Part shown: positions 14,772-29,322 of the stretch, in pieces
How positions within the stretch are numbered: the first letter of the stretch is position 1
Layout of the letters: every line of letters begins with the position of its first letter
Made by a program: the position numbers and the translations under genes
Virus record (IMG/VR): IMGVR_UViG_3300009183_000272
Coordinates: 1 to 29,385 of that record
Length of the DNA: 29,385 nt
Origin: a virus
Taxonomy: Duplodnaviria > Caudoviricetes
Direction: 5' to 3' (one strand)
The notes under the pieces: generated by a model
The model's database searches: none
Told to the model about the DNA's origin: nothing
The model's input: the letters and a program-made list of their open reading frames with translations, nothing else

Positions 14772-15235
14772 TAATATCCGAGCATTTATCTTTGTCCGAA
14801 TTAATTCGTAGTGACTCCGCAAAGCGCCTAGGAGTTACCAATATGCCGACCGATGAGCATATTATTAATTTAAAGGCATTAGCCGAAAATATCTTCGAGC
14901 CAATCCGCAACCATTTCCGTTGCCCGATTTTTATCTCTTCCGGATATCGCTCCGCAGAACTTAACCAAGCATTGAAAGGCGCCAAATCAAGCCAACATCT
15001 CAAAGGCGAGGCAATTGATATTGACATGGATGGCTCATCCAATGGAGTGACAAATGCAATGGTGTACGAATTTATAAAATCGAAGCTTGATTTTGACCAA
15101 CTTATTTGGGAGTTCGGCAATACCGAGAATCCATCCTGGGTACATGTTAGTTTTAAAAAGAACGGCCCCCAAAGACATCAAGTCTTGAGAGCCGTGTTAG
15201 TAGATGGGGGAACAAAATATGTTATAGTTTCATAA
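14768..15235 (+). CDS. Endolysin, peptidase M15 family (Zn peptidoglycan peptidase)
   Basis: SSGYRS..LN, SQHLKGEAIDID and WVHVS motifs. Confidence 0.9.
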   Translation: MIISEHLSLSELIRSDSAKRLGVTNMPTDEHIINLKALAENIFEPIRNHFRCPIFISSGYRSAELNQALKGAKSSQHLKGEAIDIDMDGSSNGVTNAMVYEFIKSKLDFDQLIWEFGNTENPSWVHVSFKKNGPQRHQVLRAVLVDGGTKYVIVS

Positions 15236-15572
15236 CCAATTTTTGATACTCTTCCTTAATATTACAATCCGTATCAAGCATATTATTTGTTGACCTAATT
15301 GCAGATATTACTGTTGTATGATCACGATTAAAAACAATACCAATCTCATCCAATGTAAGCAATGTGTTTGATCTCAAGATATGCATCGTTAATAATCTTG
15401 GGATAGCAACAACCGACTTCCTACTTTTGGACTTAATATCATCCATTGAGATATTAAATTGCTCGCAAGTATTTGCGATAACAGTATCGATATATTTCAA
15501 TACTTTCTTTTTTGGCATTGTCTTAAAGCCAATCTTTGCTTTCTTAATCCCTGGGATTATCATGTAGTTCAT
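15222..15572 (-). CDS. DnaA C-terminal (domain IV)-like HTH protein
   Basis: 'DDIKSKSRKSVVAIPR..MHILRSNT.LTLDEIG.VFNRDHTTVISAIR' matches the Bac_DnaA_C signature. The likely start is MNYMIIPG at 15572 (track start 15659). Confidence 0.8.
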   Translation of the reverse strand: MNYMIIPGIKKAKIGFKTMPKKKVLKYIDTVIANTCEQFNISMDDIKSKSRKSVVAIPRLLTMHILRSNTLLTLDEIGIVFNRDHTTVISAIRSTNNMLDTDCNIKEEYQKLVMKL

Positions 15573-15741
15573 TGTCGTTAAATTTAATCTCATTAAATAT
15601 TCCAAAAGATTCTGCCTTTTGGATATGTCTTTTAAATGTATGAAATGACATCTCATCATTTTGTAGTAAATGGGTAAGCTTACCCACTAGATCAATCTTC
15701 TCAATAATTGATAACTCAATCCATTCTTTGTGATTCGCCAT
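15544..15741 (-). CDS. Hypothetical protein (65 aa)
   Basis: ORF in a tightly packed minus-strand operon. Confidence 0.55.
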   Translation of the reverse strand: MANHKEWIELSIIEKIDLVGKLTHLLQNDEMSFHTFKRHIQKAESFGIFNEIKFNDNELHDNPRD

Positions 15742-19598: not shown

Positions 19599-20189
19599 CT
19601 AAAAAGGTGATTCCTCGGTATCAAGGACTAAATCATTATCATTATGCTTTGCAAATATCTTCAAAGCAGTTTGCTCAAGGAACTCCATCATTGCAGAATC
19701 ATCCCATTGCTCTTTACCTTTAACTTTAATCTTCTCCATTTGTGGTAAGCCATTAGGCGCATCCTTTGTGTAAGCCGGTGCAATCTTTGTATCATCTTGA
19801 TACATTGTTATGCCGGTAACTGTTTTGCTTACATCGTTTTTGTCCTTCATGGCCCAAGGCATAAATCTTAAAGGTTCCTCAATGTTAATGTTTGGCAAAG
19901 CTTTTAAAAAGCTTGATGCATATCGACTTGAGTACGGCATTGATACAATATATGTATCGGCGCCATCCTGGAATGTCAATTGCCATTGCTTACCATAATC
20001 ATTTTCACGAGTGTTTACATTTGTGATGTTACCCGTTAAGTCTTTGAAGCGCTCTTCAAAAACAAGCTTACCGGTTTTTGTTACTCGCTCGGTTGTGCGA
20101 TCATTCGCCGTTTTGTGTTGGCGTACTAGGTTCCCATCGGAAACGGAGAGGTAAGTTAAATTTGTACCTCCTAAATTTGATAAAGCCAT
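19599..20189 (-). CDS. Putative single-stranded DNA-binding protein (196 aa)
   Basis: Beta-rich core with acidic C-terminal tail ending DTEESPF; adjacent to the exonuclease. Confidence 0.55.
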   Translation of the reverse strand: MALSNLGGTNLTYLSVSDGNLVRQHKTANDRTTERVTKTGKLVFEERFKDLTGNITNVNTRENDYGKQWQLTFQDGADTYIVSMPYSSRYASSFLKALPNINIEEPLRFMPWAMKDKNDVSKTVTGITMYQDDTKIAPAYTKDAPNGLPQMEKIKVKGKEQWDDSAMMEFLEQTALKIFAKHNDNDLVLDTEESPF

Positions 20190-20222
20190 GATTTAAAAAT
20201 CGTTTGTTTTATAACGACATCA

Positions 20223-20286
20223 CAATACTAAACTATTTAATTTAAATAAAAAAACTTTTTTATTAAATTTTTTTAAATTACTTTTG
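20223..20286. promoter_or_regulatory. Divergent promoter region
   Basis: Plus-strand TACTTTTG (20279-20286) and minus-strand TAGTATTG (20223-20230) flank a very AT-rich spacer at the strand switch. Confidence 0.6.
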
Positions 20287-20297
20287 AAAGGTAAACG

Positions 20298-20366
20298 AAA
20301 TACCTCCGCTAATTAACAATAATTAATAATCGTAGTGGGTTATCCTGGATGGGAGCGGGGGTATTT
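20298..20366 (+). other. Stem-loop in the 5' leader of the replication operon
   Basis: AAATACCTCCGCT (20298-20310) pairs with AGCGGGGGTATTT (20354-20366): 13 bp with one U-G pair. Confidence 0.55.
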
Positions 20367-20384
20367 TATTAAAACCAAAATCTT

Positions 20385-20477
20385 ATGAAAATTTTATTTA
20401 TCATTGCATTCCTTATATTGGTTTGCATAAAAATCAACCTAGATGAAAACTATGAAAAAAGAAACACGAGGGCGTAA
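20385..20477 (+). CDS. Small hydrophobic peptide (30 aa; not in the ORF track)
   Basis: MKILFIIAFLILVCIKINLDENYEKRNTRA is the first ORF after the promoter. Confidence 0.35.
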   Translation: MKILFIIAFLILVCIKINLDENYEKRNTRA

Positions 20478-26102: not shown

Positions 26103-26310
26103 GCACCATTATGATCTATTTATCCGGAGTGGCGAAGTAGTAAACTTTCACGCAGATATTCAAGATGAGTTATTGAGCGTGATTAAATTAAAGATACCAC
26201 ACTATGATTACAATCGTAGGTGTGATGCATGCGTATGTGAATTTTTAGTGTTAACATATAAACAATTTAAAGATGAGTTACATCCATCCAACGGCGTTGA
26301 TTGGGCCTAA
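26080..26310 (+). CDS. Hypothetical protein with CxxC
   Basis: Probable TTG start near the GT stop (track start 26020); contains 'RRCDACV'. Confidence 0.5.
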   Translation: MEILLKHKHHYDLFIRSGEVVNFHADIQDELLSVIKLKIPHYDYNRRCDACVCEFLVLTYKQFKDELHPSNGVDWA

Positions 26311-26764
26311 TGTAAGCATAGGCGAGAACTGTTATATTGGTCCTTATTGCATTATCGGTTACACGGCCGAGCATAAAGAGTTTTGGAATCGGGAGCCTGG
26401 GAGTGTCTCCATTGGTGACAATGTAGTATTAACCGGACATGTTACTATTGATGCAAGCACAGGAGATCAACCGACATTTATTGGTGATGATGTGTGGATG
26501 CTTAAGCATAGCCATGTCGGTCATGATTGCTTTATTCATAGCAAGGTGACCATCTCATGTGGTGCAAAGGTTGGAGGACATACAATTGTGAGGTACAAAT
26601 GTAATCTTGGACTTAATGCAGTAATCCATCAAAAGCAAGACATTGCCATTGGTTGCATGATTGGAATGGGTGCCGTGGTAACAAAGAAACTAATCACTCA
26701 AGCTTTTAAAAAGTATGCCGGCAATCCCGCAAAAGAGATAGGGGATAATGCTATTTACAAATAA
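26273..26764 (+). CDS. Hexapeptide-repeat (left-handed beta-helix) acyltransferase, LpxA-like
   Basis: IHPTALIG..V.IG..CYIGPYCIIG, HSHVGHDC, VGGH, VIHQ and AGNPAK. Confidence 0.85.
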   Translation: MSYIHPTALIGPNVSIGENCYIGPYCIIGYTAEHKEFWNREPGSVSIGDNVVLTGHVTIDASTGDQPTFIGDDVWMLKHSHVGHDCFIHSKVTISCGAKVGGHTIVRYKCNLGLNAVIHQKQDIAIGCMIGMGAVVTKKLITQAFKKYAGNPAKEIGDNAIYK

Positions 26765-27120
26765 GTTGCATGAATTTTTCCGAATTAGTGTCACCGATTT
26801 ATATAAATATGTGACAAAGTGAGGGGCAATTCGGAGTTTATTTGTATTAAAATAATGGTAGTAATATTACTATTATTATCAAAAAATGCAACTTGTTCAA
26901 ATTTTGATAGTGTTCACGAATCGTGAACAATGGTAATAAGTGAACATAGTAAAGCCGTTACTTTACTCAATGGAGTGAGTAATTTTACTCAATGAGCCGG
27001 TAATGATTGATAATCGGCTCAAGCTTGATTGATAAATGCACATCATAAAATGCATTATATGACACATATTGCAATCATTAGTATCATTAATGACCACTTA
27101 TGATGGAAACTTCGGACATG
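26763..27120. repeat. Non-coding array of non-identical palindromes / inverted repeats
   Basis: About ten dyads, e.g. TGTCAC-N16-GTGACA, TAGTAATATTACTA, TGTTCACGA-A-TCGTGAACA, AGTAAAG-N6-CTTTACT, TGAGTAA-TT-TTACTCA and TGAGCCG-N15-CGGCTCA; no ORF in the track. Confidence 0.8.
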
Positions 27121-27126
27121 ATTAAG

Positions 27127-27134
27127 TATATTTG
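27127..27134 (+). promoter_or_regulatory. Bacteroidota-type -7 promoter element TATATTTG
   Basis: TAnnTTTG 17 nt before the ATG at 27152. Confidence 0.55.
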
Positions 27135-27151
27135 CAGATAAATAAGGATAT

Positions 27152-27772
27152 ATGAAAATACTAATATGCGGCTTAACTTATGGAAATAGGCCAACGGATA
27201 TCATTGAATCCAATTTAAAGCGTGCGGGATGCGATTACAAGTACCTTGAGGTAAATAGAGAAGGTATTGCCAACGCGCTAAATGACGGCCTAGATATCGC
27301 TATAATTAATAACTACGACTATATTGGCTATCTTGCCAATGATATCATTGAGCCGGACAATTGGTTGGCAAAGAAACTTGAAGCCATCCAAACTTACCCA
27401 TTTGCGGGAATAGTTGCATCAAGCTTGGGAGAAGTAAAGAAAGGAATTAGGAGTGAGCATATCATATCCAATTGGTTGCTTGACATAAAGCTTGTTAATG
27501 CAATTGGTTACTTTAATGAGTCGATGTTCCCTTATGGCCCAATTGATTTGGATTATTGCGAGCGGTCCCATATAGCGAATTTTAATACTTACTATGTGAT
27601 GGACTGTATGGCCGAACATTTAGGAACTCACGCAACAGGGGATGAGTACGGATGGGATAAGGCCGAGATAATTAATAAGAATTGGGCCGCACATGAGCAT
27701 GACATAAACTCATATAGAAACGGAACTAAAAACATAAAACATGGTAAGAGAACATACAACAAGGAAGTTTAA
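27152..27772 (+). CDS. Glycosyltransferase, GT-A fold (GT2-like)
   Basis: 'TYGNRP', 'GIANALNDGL', 'LANDII.PDNWL' and 'IGYFNESM.PYG.IDLDYCER' motifs. Confidence 0.8.
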   Translation: MKILICGLTYGNRPTDIIESNLKRAGCDYKYLEVNREGIANALNDGLDIAIINNYDYIGYLANDIIEPDNWLAKKLEAIQTYPFAGIVASSLGEVKKGIRSEHIISNWLLDIKLVNAIGYFNESMFPYGPIDLDYCERSHIANFNTYYVMDCMAEHLGTHATGDEYGWDKAEIINKNWAAHEHDINSYRNGTKNIKHGKRTYNKEV

Positions 27773-28166
27773 GGATATCGATAAAGATGAAATGCTTAAT
27801 TTGGCTTATGCATATTGTGATGATTGTATGGGCGGTAAAAAAGAGGTGGCGACCGGTAGCGGTAAGATAGTTGAGATAAGAGACCGTTATGTGCCAACAA
27901 TAGATTATTTCCTAGATCATTGGTTGAGGTTGCACAATAAAGAGTTTTATCATAGGATGCAACTTTGGACCATTAGACAGGACCCGACACATCCTTATTA
28001 TGAATTGGTTACTCATATCGTTGCGATGTTTAAATCATTGGCAGTTGATATAGTAGCGAACGAAGGCAAGGCGATATTTTATGCAAAGAATGCTTTGGGC
28101 ATGACTGATAAGGCAATGACTGAAAATACAAACATCGACACCATTACAATCAAGTATGAATCTTGA
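27741..28166 (+). CDS. Putative terminase small subunit
   Basis: Directly upstream of and overlapping TerL; C-terminal 'AIFYAKNALGMTDK' is typical of small subunits. Confidence 0.6.
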   Translation: MVREHTTRKFKDIDKDEMLNLAYAYCDDCMGGKKEVATGSGKIVEIRDRYVPTIDYFLDHWLRLHNKEFYHRMQLWTIRQDPTHPYYELVTHIVAMFKSLAVDIVANEGKAIFYAKNALGMTDKAMTENTNIDTITIKYES

Positions 28167-29322
28167 GATTAAACTCCCAAAGCCACATCTTAAACAACTA
28201 GAGGTTATTCAATCGGGTGCCAGGTTTAAAGTAATGATGGCCGGTCGAAGGTTTGGTAAGTCGGTTATCTCTCAAACCATAGCAATTGAATCAGCATTAA
28301 AGCGACAACATGTTGCGTATATTACTCCCACTTATCAGTTGGGTAAAATGTTTTTTAAAGAGATATGCAAGATATTACCGGATAAAGTTTATAAAAAGAA
28401 TGAGACCGACTTATTAATGGATTTCATTACGGGAGGATCAATAAGGTTTTTTACGGGTGAAAGGCTTGATGCAATGAGAGGAACAAAGTATCACCTGGTT
28501 ATCATTGATGAGGCATCATATATCGCCAATCTTGAGGAAGGATGGAATAATAGCATAAGGCCAACGCTAACTGATTTTAAGGGCAAGGCAATATTTTTAA
28601 GTACACCAAGAGGCAAAAATTACTTTTATAGTTTATTTATGAGGGGCGGTGAGCCGGATTGGCAAAGCTTCAAATTTACTACTTATGATAATCCTTTTAT
28701 GGATGCATCCGAGATTGACTCGGCAAAGGCGCAGCTTCCGGCGGTTGTATTCAAGCAAGAGTACATGGCCGATCCAATGGAGAATGCAGCCAATCCATTT
28801 GGCTCCGAGTTTATTTATGCATGTACTAAAACCTCAACCGGTGTGGCTGCTTATTACGGAATTGACCTTGCTAAATCGGTCGATTGGACTGTTATCATCG
28901 GGATGGATAAGCTAGGCAATGTCGTTCACTTTGATCGGTTCCAAAAAGATTGGATGCAGACAAAAGAAACAATTTTAAGATTGCCATCTAATATCCCAAT
29001 AGTAATTGATAGTACAGGAGTGGGCGATGCCATTGTTGAGGACCTACAAAAAAAATTTAGTCAAATGCATGGCTTTAAGTTTACGAGTGTGAGCAAGCAA
29101 CAGTTATTGGAGGGGTTAAGTAATGCCATCCAAACGAAGAGCATATCTTATCCGGATGGATTTATTAGGCATGAGCTTGAAGTGTTTGAGTACAAATTCA
29201 CTCCAACCGGAGTTAGGTATTCAGCGCCTCAAGGGTTCCATGATGATTGCGTGATTGCCCTAGCACTTGCAAACAAATGCCGTAATGACTACAAATTGGT
29301 TGGTAAGTACCATGTAATATAA
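28156..29322 (+). CDS. terL: Terminase large subunit
   Basis: Walker A AGRRFGKS, Walker B VIIDEA, STPRG coupling motif, nuclease GIDLA / DSTGVG / HDDCVIALALA. Confidence 0.95.
   Translation: MNLEIKLPKPHLKQLEVIQSGARFKVMMAGRRFGKSVISQTIAIESALKRQHVAYITPTYQLGKMFFKEICKILPDKVYKKNETDLLMDFITGGSIRFFTGERLDAMRGTKYHLVIIDEASYIANLEEGWNNSIRPTLTDFKGKAIFLSTPRGKNYFYSLFMRGGEPDWQSFKFTTYDNPFMDASEIDSAKAQLPAVVFKQEYMADPMENAANPFGSEFIYACTKTSTGVAAYYGIDLAKSVDWTVIIGMDKLGNVVHFDRFQKDWMQTKETILRLPSNIPIVIDSTGVGDAIVEDLQKKFSQMHGFKFTSVSKQQLLEGLSNAIQTKSISYPDGFIRHELEVFEYKFTPTGVRYSAPQGFHDDCVIALALANKCRNDYKLVGKYHVI

Follow-up and report, generated by a model that had tools for sequence, protein, structure and literature searches.

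A palindrome array in a non-coding gap of a phage genome matches promoter sites of host defence-type genes and may act as a DNA decoy

To our knowledge, known counter-defences are proteins or RNAs. The closest published analogue that we found for the locus described here is the set of pseudo-ToxI repeats of phage PhiTE, whose copy number is reported to vary and which can be acquired from the host by recombination (PMC3475682). On the side of the host, AbiEi antitoxins are described as repressing their own operon through inverted repeats in the promoter (PMC7319586) and as neutralising AbiEii by binding as well as by induced auto-phosphorylation (bioRxiv 10.64898/2026.01.19.700257). Repression of its own promoter is likewise described for CccR, a Fic protein that contains a DNA-binding domain (PMC9755527), and CbFic2 was proposed to turn into a deAMPylating dimer on DNA (PMC10628234). 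Furthermore, PDC-S01, a very common ATPase fused to a PD-(D/E)XK domain (PMC12988326; PMC3424549), is named as the fourth most common defence candidate (PMC12988326), and in rumen genomes PDC-S01, AbiE, and SoFic are listed among the most abundant defence systems (PMC13356809). A search of the literature, thin on subscription papers and confined to main texts without supplements, found no precedent for a phage array of defence-gene operators.

The window, that is, the whole stretch of DNA analysed (29,385 nt), derives from the record of a linear lake virus of 29.4 kb, which is 79% complete and contains structural, replication, and terminase genes. A first-pass annotation had described a dense collection of unrelated palindromes in the longest gap of this genome, and had suspected a set of operators for several host regulators. 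Among the called genes this gap (26765-27151, 387 nt) is indeed the longest, followed by one of 253 nt, and all 19 quoted stretches were recovered with the letters and coordinates given. The proposed start of the element at 26763 stands, but not its end at 27120, as the element continues to ~27151 (Table 1). No support as separate units was found for TCAAGCTTGA, AAGTTGCAT/ATGCAACTT, and CATCATAA/TTATGATG, which had been listed as pairs. In turn, a direct repeat of TGATTGATAA at 27004 and 27026 and an 11/22-bp periodicity, with short direct repeats returning at 22 nt, had been absent from the annotation.

Table 1. Positions of the array, its units and the neighbouring genes within the window
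Feature	Position	Strand	Basis or remark
Hexapeptide-repeat transferase gene, 5' flank of the array	26273..26764	+	Pfam Hexapep
Non-coding operator array (predicted), entire	26763..27151		Between hexapeptide-transferase gene and GT2 gene
Half-site of TGCATGAA..TTCATGCA palindrome (190-199-aa AbiEi antitoxins)	26766..26778		Host loci L404, L496, L504, L505
Partial copy of AATTCGGA..TCCGAATT palindrome (212-aa AbiEi antitoxins)	26772..26787		Host loci L409, L497
TGTCAC-N16-GTGACA, predicted operator of DUF6088-type AbiEi (200-206 aa) + AbiEii toxin operons	26789..26816		L392, L499
GTAGTA..TACTA dyad	26852..26879		In 70/142 arrays
TATCAAAA-N17-TTTTGATA, predicted operator of 392-aa AAA_14-DUF4143 (PDC-S01) subfamily	26877..26909		Metagenome contexts
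Four TGTTCA/TGAACA half-sites, core dyad 26911-26929, predicted operator of 331-aa AbiEi_2 antitoxin	26893..26946		L234, sole host example
AGTAAAG-N6-CTTTACT, predicted operator of mobile mystery protein A (HTH) + protein B (Fic)	26948..26967		3/4 genome hits
TTACTCA/TGAGTAA array, 22-bp period, predicted operator of 394-aa AAA_14-DUF4143 (PDC-S01) subfamily	26961..26993		Host loci
TGAGCCG-N15-CGGCTCA, predicted operator of DUF4172-Fic genes	26993..27021		L544, L559, L575
TGATTGATAA-N12-TGATTGATAA, predicted operator of 349-aa HTH-Fic gene	27004..27035	+	20/46 GTDB loci
3' block, 11-bp CAT(A/T) period	27038..27120		Common to relatives
Degenerate repeats with single TAnnTTTG at 27127-27134	27121..27151	+	Resemble repeats 5' of host Fic gene L548; one example, tentative
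Glycosyltransferase family 2-like (GT2) gene, 3' flank of the array	27152..27772	+	Pfam Glycos_transf_2, E 2.7e-4, below cut-off
Putative small terminase (terS)	27741..28166	+	Position alone; Pfam search without match
Large terminase (terL)	28156..29322	+	Pfam Terminase_6N

The palindromes are real and lie far above chance, as the recommended comparison with shuffled sequence demonstrated: perfect dyads with arms of at least 6 and loops of at most 20 number 13 as opposed to 3.0 +/- 1.7, a count reached by 0 of 1000 dinucleotide shuffles, and those with arms of at least 7 number 7 in the gap versus 0.84 expected, again with 0/1000 shuffles as high. The array strand also folds better than shuffles, with z = -5.6 for RNA folding and z = -6.3 for DNA folding. 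However, dyad density alone is not unique to the array, because an AT-rich gap between divergent genes near 20001-20460 attains an equal dyad score (13 and 9); the unit patterns of the array form no cluster in that gap. Its dyad-rich part at 20190-20442 is probably an early control region. Elsewhere in the window, a phage gene on the minus strand (15222-15659) encodes a DnaA C-terminal HTH domain (Pfam Bac_DnaA_C, E 4e-20). No RNA dataset is among the sequencing runs listed for the array. Contigs from four sequencing runs pile up on its units with loose ends near the unit borders, which shows their presence only.

Sequence comparison indicates that seven full units and two half-units match palindromes situated directly upstream of particular Bacteroidota defence-type genes, namely those of four AbiEi antitoxin subfamilies (two as half-sites only), two PDC-S01 ATPase-nuclease subfamilies, two Fic families, and mobile mystery protein A/B. 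This identity of the units as promoter palindromes of host defence genes is well supported, and we regard it as highly probable. Searching the dyads against Bacteroidota sequence, as had been suggested, returned copies directly 5' of toxin-antitoxin and defence genes; the idea of a collection of host-regulator operators thus holds for such genes, but not for the metal or metabolic regulators that had also been envisaged. Rather, the assigned units appear to be sites of narrow, self-regulating defence genes without known regulon, unlike the boxes of global or metabolic regulators. Each phage-derived pattern adjoins one gene family, with 20/46 loci for the HTH-Fic unit, 36/119 upstream for the 392-aa and 9/11 for the 394-aa PDC-S01 unit, and 3/4 for the mobile mystery protein unit, while host copies of units also occur as orphans and on either side of genes. 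Host-site matrices place the array first for 7/9 families, a ranking that is partly circular, since the host sites were chosen with phage-like patterns, and that we therefore exclude from the independent evidence; the full-site matrices of the 190-199-aa and 212-aa AbiEi units did not rank the window half-sites first. In a BLAST of the whole array against 301 Chitinophagaceae genomes, AT-rich noise dominates except for the TTACTCA and TGTTCA units. From the occurrence of the sites we infer a host within the Chitinophagaceae.

A test independent of the phage made use of DUF4143, AbiEii, HipA, and Fic loci of Chitinophagaceae gathered by Pfam search alone (the best 30 per set plus, among the matches listed, a further 40 for DUF4143, 20 for AbiEii, and 40 for Fic), whose promoters were scored against the window array and 40 shuffles of it. 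Within this part of the listed matches, and with labels that are heuristic and noisy, z > 3 was reached by 9/48 AbiEi promoters and 5/71 Fic-labelled promoters versus 3/274 controls (Fisher p = 2.8e-6 and 0.011, respectively). In the fetched set, 0/64 PDC-S01 and 0/2 HipB promoters exceeded the threshold, the former because the two matching subfamilies were absent from that set and the repeats are subfamily-specific. HipA/HipB promoters were also considered as a source of the window array and rejected for want of a match; the array in the gap of L070 alone resembles them, carrying TATACC..GGTATA units like the HipB promoters L432 and L439.

With regard to the AbiE-type units, an inverted repeat stands directly 5' of the abiEi-abiEii operon in L392, L499, L404, L496, L504, L505, L409, L497, and L234. 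The window holds the two-armed DUF6088 and AbiEi_2 sites in full and the 190-199-aa and 212-aa sites as halves. TGTCAC-N16-GTGACA abuts the ATG of DUF6088 antitoxins in L392 and L499, which came from the AbiEii Pfam search with no phage query and whose promoters score z = 6.8 and 12.0, respectively, against the window array. TGCATGAA is the mark of the 190-199-aa antitoxins and AATTCGGA/TCCGAATT that of the 212-aa antitoxins; all tested members are AbiEi by PADLOC, at 293 bits for L404 and 237 bits for the 212-aa antitoxin. The full TGCATGAA..TTCATGCA dyad is found in 35/142 arrays and only its half in the window, where a second half of the AATTCGGA..TCCGAATT unit lies at 26826-26835. The L234 antitoxin matches Pfam AbiEi_2 with 98.5 bits. 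Longer arrays (gaps upstream in L726, L727, and L730) carry TGTCCAG..CTGGACA of 240-aa DUF6088 antitoxins, a unit that is not in the window; host loci of the longer-array units are L407, L413, L415, L417, L495, and L502. TGTAAC..GTTACA and GGTGCAAA are further units of longer arrays, absent from the window and so far without a host family.

Two units point to PDC-S01 subfamilies. The gene link of the TATCAAAA unit was derived from metagenome contigs, where its 119 distinct contexts comprise 39 phage-type arrays, 36 positions upstream and 6 downstream of a 392-aa PDC-S01 gene (PADLOC PDC-S01, 465 bits), and 38 orphan or undetermined cases; the site typically lies 19-23 nt from the ATG. In 251 Chitinophagaceae genomes the same pattern occurred in 21, nearly always in coding DNA and with one good orphan site. 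For the TTACTCA unit the first lead was Bacteroides finegoldii L144, with three copies of TTTTACTCAAT at a 22-nt period just 5' of an AAA_14-DUF4143 gene, and 9 of 11 fetched Bacteroidota loci adjoin the 394-aa gene (8 upstream, 1 downstream), whose subfamily is PADLOC PDC-S01 with 601-611 bits. Other PDC-S01 subfamilies carry other repeats before the gene start. A DNA-binding domain is weakly indicated, as HTH_11 was matched in 7/39 PDC-S01 members with a best E of 0.006. L358-L387 and L448-L487, in which each subfamily has its own tandem or inverted repeat 5' of the start codon, constitute a catalogue of predicted operators.

Three further units are linked to Fic proteins. AGTAAAG-N6-CTTTACT had 4 matches in 201 genomes, being rarer than its control pattern (4 vs 7 of 201), and 3 of the 4 lie upstream of TIGR02612 genes above cut-off; mobile mystery protein A shows weak HipB-like domain matches, and in L747 its gene is followed by a Fic gene. 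TGAGCCG-N15-CGGCTCA abuts the ATG in L544, L559, and L575, which were retrieved by the Fic Pfam search with no phage query. Its arms are identical to the host sites at 14/14 positions in 10 of 11 site readings from these three loci, the spacer at 6-8 of 15, and the first TGATTGATAA copy, the motif of the HTH-Fic genes, is nested inside this spacer. Arms identical to those of the host, together with a second operator in the spacer, point to selection for binding and not to a relic. As for TGATTGATAA-N12-TGATTGATAA, 20 of its 46 GTDB loci adjoin a 349-aa Fic gene, mostly 7-10 nt 5' of the ATG, all with Bacteroidota titles and many from Sediminibacterium, while the remaining 26 are mostly tandem repeats or scattered matches. 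The 349-aa family matches Pfam Fic and, weakly, N-terminal HTH domains (E 4e-4 to 0.016). Two blocks yielded no host family: the GTAGTA dyad matched 27/201 genomes, with its control pattern more frequent and no gene in common, and the pattern of the 3' block matched 0/251 genomes. The TAnnTTTG at the end of the array is what we take to be a Bacteroidota -7-like motif.

Exact scans of viral contigs with three of the units revealed a family of 141 non-redundant non-coding viral stretches besides the window, hence 142 arrays; in one of the scans 55/120 hits were kept and about half, being coding sequence of another gene, were dropped. The three scan units are over-counted in these arrays because the stretches were chosen by them. 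As to the 11 tracked units, 18 stretches hold one only and most hold 4 to 8. Spacer lengths are fixed throughout the arrays (15 nt in 91/92, 16 nt in 42/42, 17 nt in 74/74, and 12-13 nt in 35/35). Comparison of the syntenic gap in relatives, another check that had been proposed, disclosed units gained and lost between close relatives: 20 of 21 GT2 relatives had upstream sequence, and at 89-100% identity 9/10 possess an array of 224 to >900 nt with differing units, one of these nine being identical to the window, while the tenth ends at the contig end. No record of the INPHARED phages covered the array, and short matches only were obtained. Tenacibaculum phage pT24 may be a cultured phage carrying a site of this kind, as TGTTCA/TGAACA motifs cluster in a 640-nt gap (L147:1500-1600) that also contains another repeat. 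In related phages, many arrays are bordered by a hairpin whose CGTTT(C/T)TACG loop is conserved (L004, L017, L018, L040, L049, L074, L082, and L085). Presumed likeness of units to serine-resolvase res or hix sites was not borne out, since the one plasmid match in the vicinity of a resolvase coincides with the beginning of a KfrA-like gene, and other assignments were subsequently obtained for the units. A bias of G-T versus A-C mismatches proved uninformative, as it is mostly one inherited asymmetry.

Judging from these sequence matches, we lean towards the reading that the array acts as a DNA decoy binding self-regulating defence proteins during infection and, with slightly less assurance, that Bacteroidota phages tend to collect operators of many defence and toxin-antitoxin genes as a modular, DNA-only counter-defence with one unit of 20-35 bp per system. 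The trait common to the assigned families is likely self-regulation via an upstream repeat; AbiEi, CccR, and CbFic2 are precedents for operator binding. The host copies of the palindromes would then be autoregulatory operators, and replication would multiply the phage copies beyond the single operator of the host. Single-protein effectors such as Fic and PDC-S01 would be kept inactive while bound to DNA, in analogy to the switch proposed for CbFic2, whereas antitoxins would be drawn off their promoter, thereby derepressing the operon and yielding more antitoxin. Each unit would counter one defence specificity, and thus the array would widen the host range at ~30 bp per system. The trimming, nesting, and fixed spacers of the units argue for their later selection. 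Against a decoy, titration of a one-gene autorepressed effector could boost its synthesis, harming the phage. Moreover, the targets may not all be anti-phage, because PDC-S01 is an unvalidated candidate, as most PDCs await validation (PMC12988326), and the AbiE of S. agalactiae is reported to give no protection against 32 coliphages (bioRxiv 10.64898/2026.01.19.700257).

Alternatively, the sites might act in cis as a self-mark, which would lead defence proteins, the PDC-S01 ATPase-nuclease in particular, to leave the DNA bearing them intact; one copy would be enough and no titration would be needed. This is consistent with solitary sites in unrelated phages, as the host-like form of the DUF4172-Fic site occurs at 19 viral loci, none of them close to such a Fic gene and many consisting of a lone site between the closely packed genes of unrelated phages, and with orphan sites in host DNA, to which the orphan or undetermined contexts of the TATCAAAA unit belong. 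We nonetheless consider it unlikely, for it is difficult to reconcile with Fic enzymes and AbiE nucleotidyltransferases, which act on targets other than the invading DNA. Examples of solitary DUF4172-Fic-type sites, in narrow spaces between genes of unrelated phages, are found in L778, L782, L784-L787, L789, and L792; in L783, a distant relative, the hexapeptide-GT2 gap is occupied by a mini-array of different composition. The Fic site of L782 adjoins a phage gene (L782:419-895; also L724:576-746 and L349:98-250) in which a MUG113/T5orf172 domain is fused to an HTH with 40-45% identity to residues 25-85 of mobile mystery protein A, possibly an antitoxin or repressor mimic.

A role as sensor or roadblock, in which bound host proteins repress or stall transcription through the gap and so slow the late genes in hosts that bear the systems, would agree with the -7-like motif at the end of the window array and with the arrangement of the arrays: among 51 with both neighbours visible (62 others touch the locus edge), 44 lie between co-directional genes, 15 of these before the large terminase gene, compared with 5 between divergent and 2 between convergent genes. 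We hold this to be improbable as well. The gaps that arrays occupy are unrelated, some preceding terL or GT2 and others lying between head genes or between early genes; TGATTGATAA, an asymmetric unit, reads in the sense direction in 18 arrays and in the antisense direction in 8; and 9 of 10 GT2 relatives at 49-56% identity have the same operon without a gap, the remaining one having 116 nt that lack the units. The array is therefore an insertion dispensable to the operon, unlikely to be an essential promoter or a pac site, and the variant of the first-pass annotation in which host signals feed the promoter of GT2-terS-terL is weakened by the many unrelated gaps and both orientations.

Nor do we give much credence to the sites being scars or landing pads, left where defence genes inserted at or with a palindrome and were later deleted, so that sites accumulate from which the phage gains nothing. 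Cellular contigs do show the 392-aa PDC-S01 gene between two copies of the site (L614/L615, L630/L631, and L668/L669), and L639/L675 share 99.8% identity as far as the site, beyond which they are empty versus filled. However, tblastn with ten cognate host proteins found no full homologue, that is, no filled allele, beside the 141 arrays (64 of the loci being <1500 nt) or in the window, the exceptions being a phage gene with an HTH-sized stretch that matches mobile mystery protein A and, near L776, one AbiEi_2 gene. Furthermore, units are trimmed and nested with spacer lengths kept, and several unrelated protein families would need the same habit. In G076:C14:24218-25608 a PDC-S01 gene is flanked by two palindrome copies, such copies being ~1.3 kb apart, and gene and site of PDC-S01 may form a cassette that moves or is lost as a whole. 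Such cassettes may be how phages first capture units.

A structured non-coding RNA or packaging-start region, both voiced in the first-pass annotation and in keeping with the better-than-shuffled folding and the position upstream of the terminase genes, is very improbable, as Rfam gave no credible match (a single one, at E 3.9, lies outside the gap), the folding is as good for DNA as for RNA, units occur in both orientations with fixed spacers and have a DNA-level source in host promoters, the array is absent in 10/10 distant relatives, and similar arrays lie far from terminase genes.

If the decoy reading is true, the array would amount to a phage-written list of candidate systems that are truly anti-phage (PDC-S01, DUF4172-Fic, HTH-Fic, mobile mystery proteins, and DUF6088-type AbiE), and its units without a host match would point to defence genes not yet named. 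The role of chromosomal toxin-antitoxin and Fic modules against phages is debated, and operators kept by phages suggest their importance in lakes. A non-coding, multi-system DNA array would escape gene-based anti-defence screens. The result also yields predicted operators for the AbiE, PDC-S01, Fic, and mobile-mystery-protein families, and offers a way in which the non-coding DNA of phages could be used to deduce their hosts as well as new defence genes.

How does this array relate to known systems? REP/BIME and the Ssn/RAYT-associated repeats likewise form a mosaic of short palindromes, with the cognate gene sometimes flanked by sites and with orphan copies in host DNA. Unlike these, each unit of the array belongs to a different protein family, the spacers, by their length and constancy, are unsuited to hairpin substrates, and the arrays lack an accompanying nuclease or transposase gene. 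Closer to the units themselves, CccR and CbFic2 are Fic enzymes with a DNA-binding domain, of which CccR binds palindromes in its own promoter (PMC9755527), while the activity of CbFic2 is regulated by DNA binding and its DUF4172 N-terminus is shared by L544/L559/L575 (PMC10628234); both are secreted effectors, however, and the accessible text of the two reports describes no phage-borne site (PMC9755527, PMC10628234). As with the AbiEi promoters of S. agalactiae and its homologues (PMC7319586), four units match inverted repeats of Chitinophagaceae 5' of AbiEi-AbiEii operons, but the phage copies appear as orphans, with no antitoxin gene and packed together with the presumed operators of unrelated families. 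The array is most reminiscent of pseudo-ToxI, in that a non-coding phage sequence mimics part of a host toxin-antitoxin locus (PMC3475682). Nevertheless, tandem one-strand RNA units of the pseudo-ToxI type were not encountered, the array units being unrelated dyads in both orientations with no Rfam match. Thus, whereas pseudo-ToxI is described as an RNA antitoxin against one system (PMC3475682), the array would consist of DNA operator copies of about nine gene subfamilies, present in either orientation, and as a decoy it would be a new kind of counter-defence.
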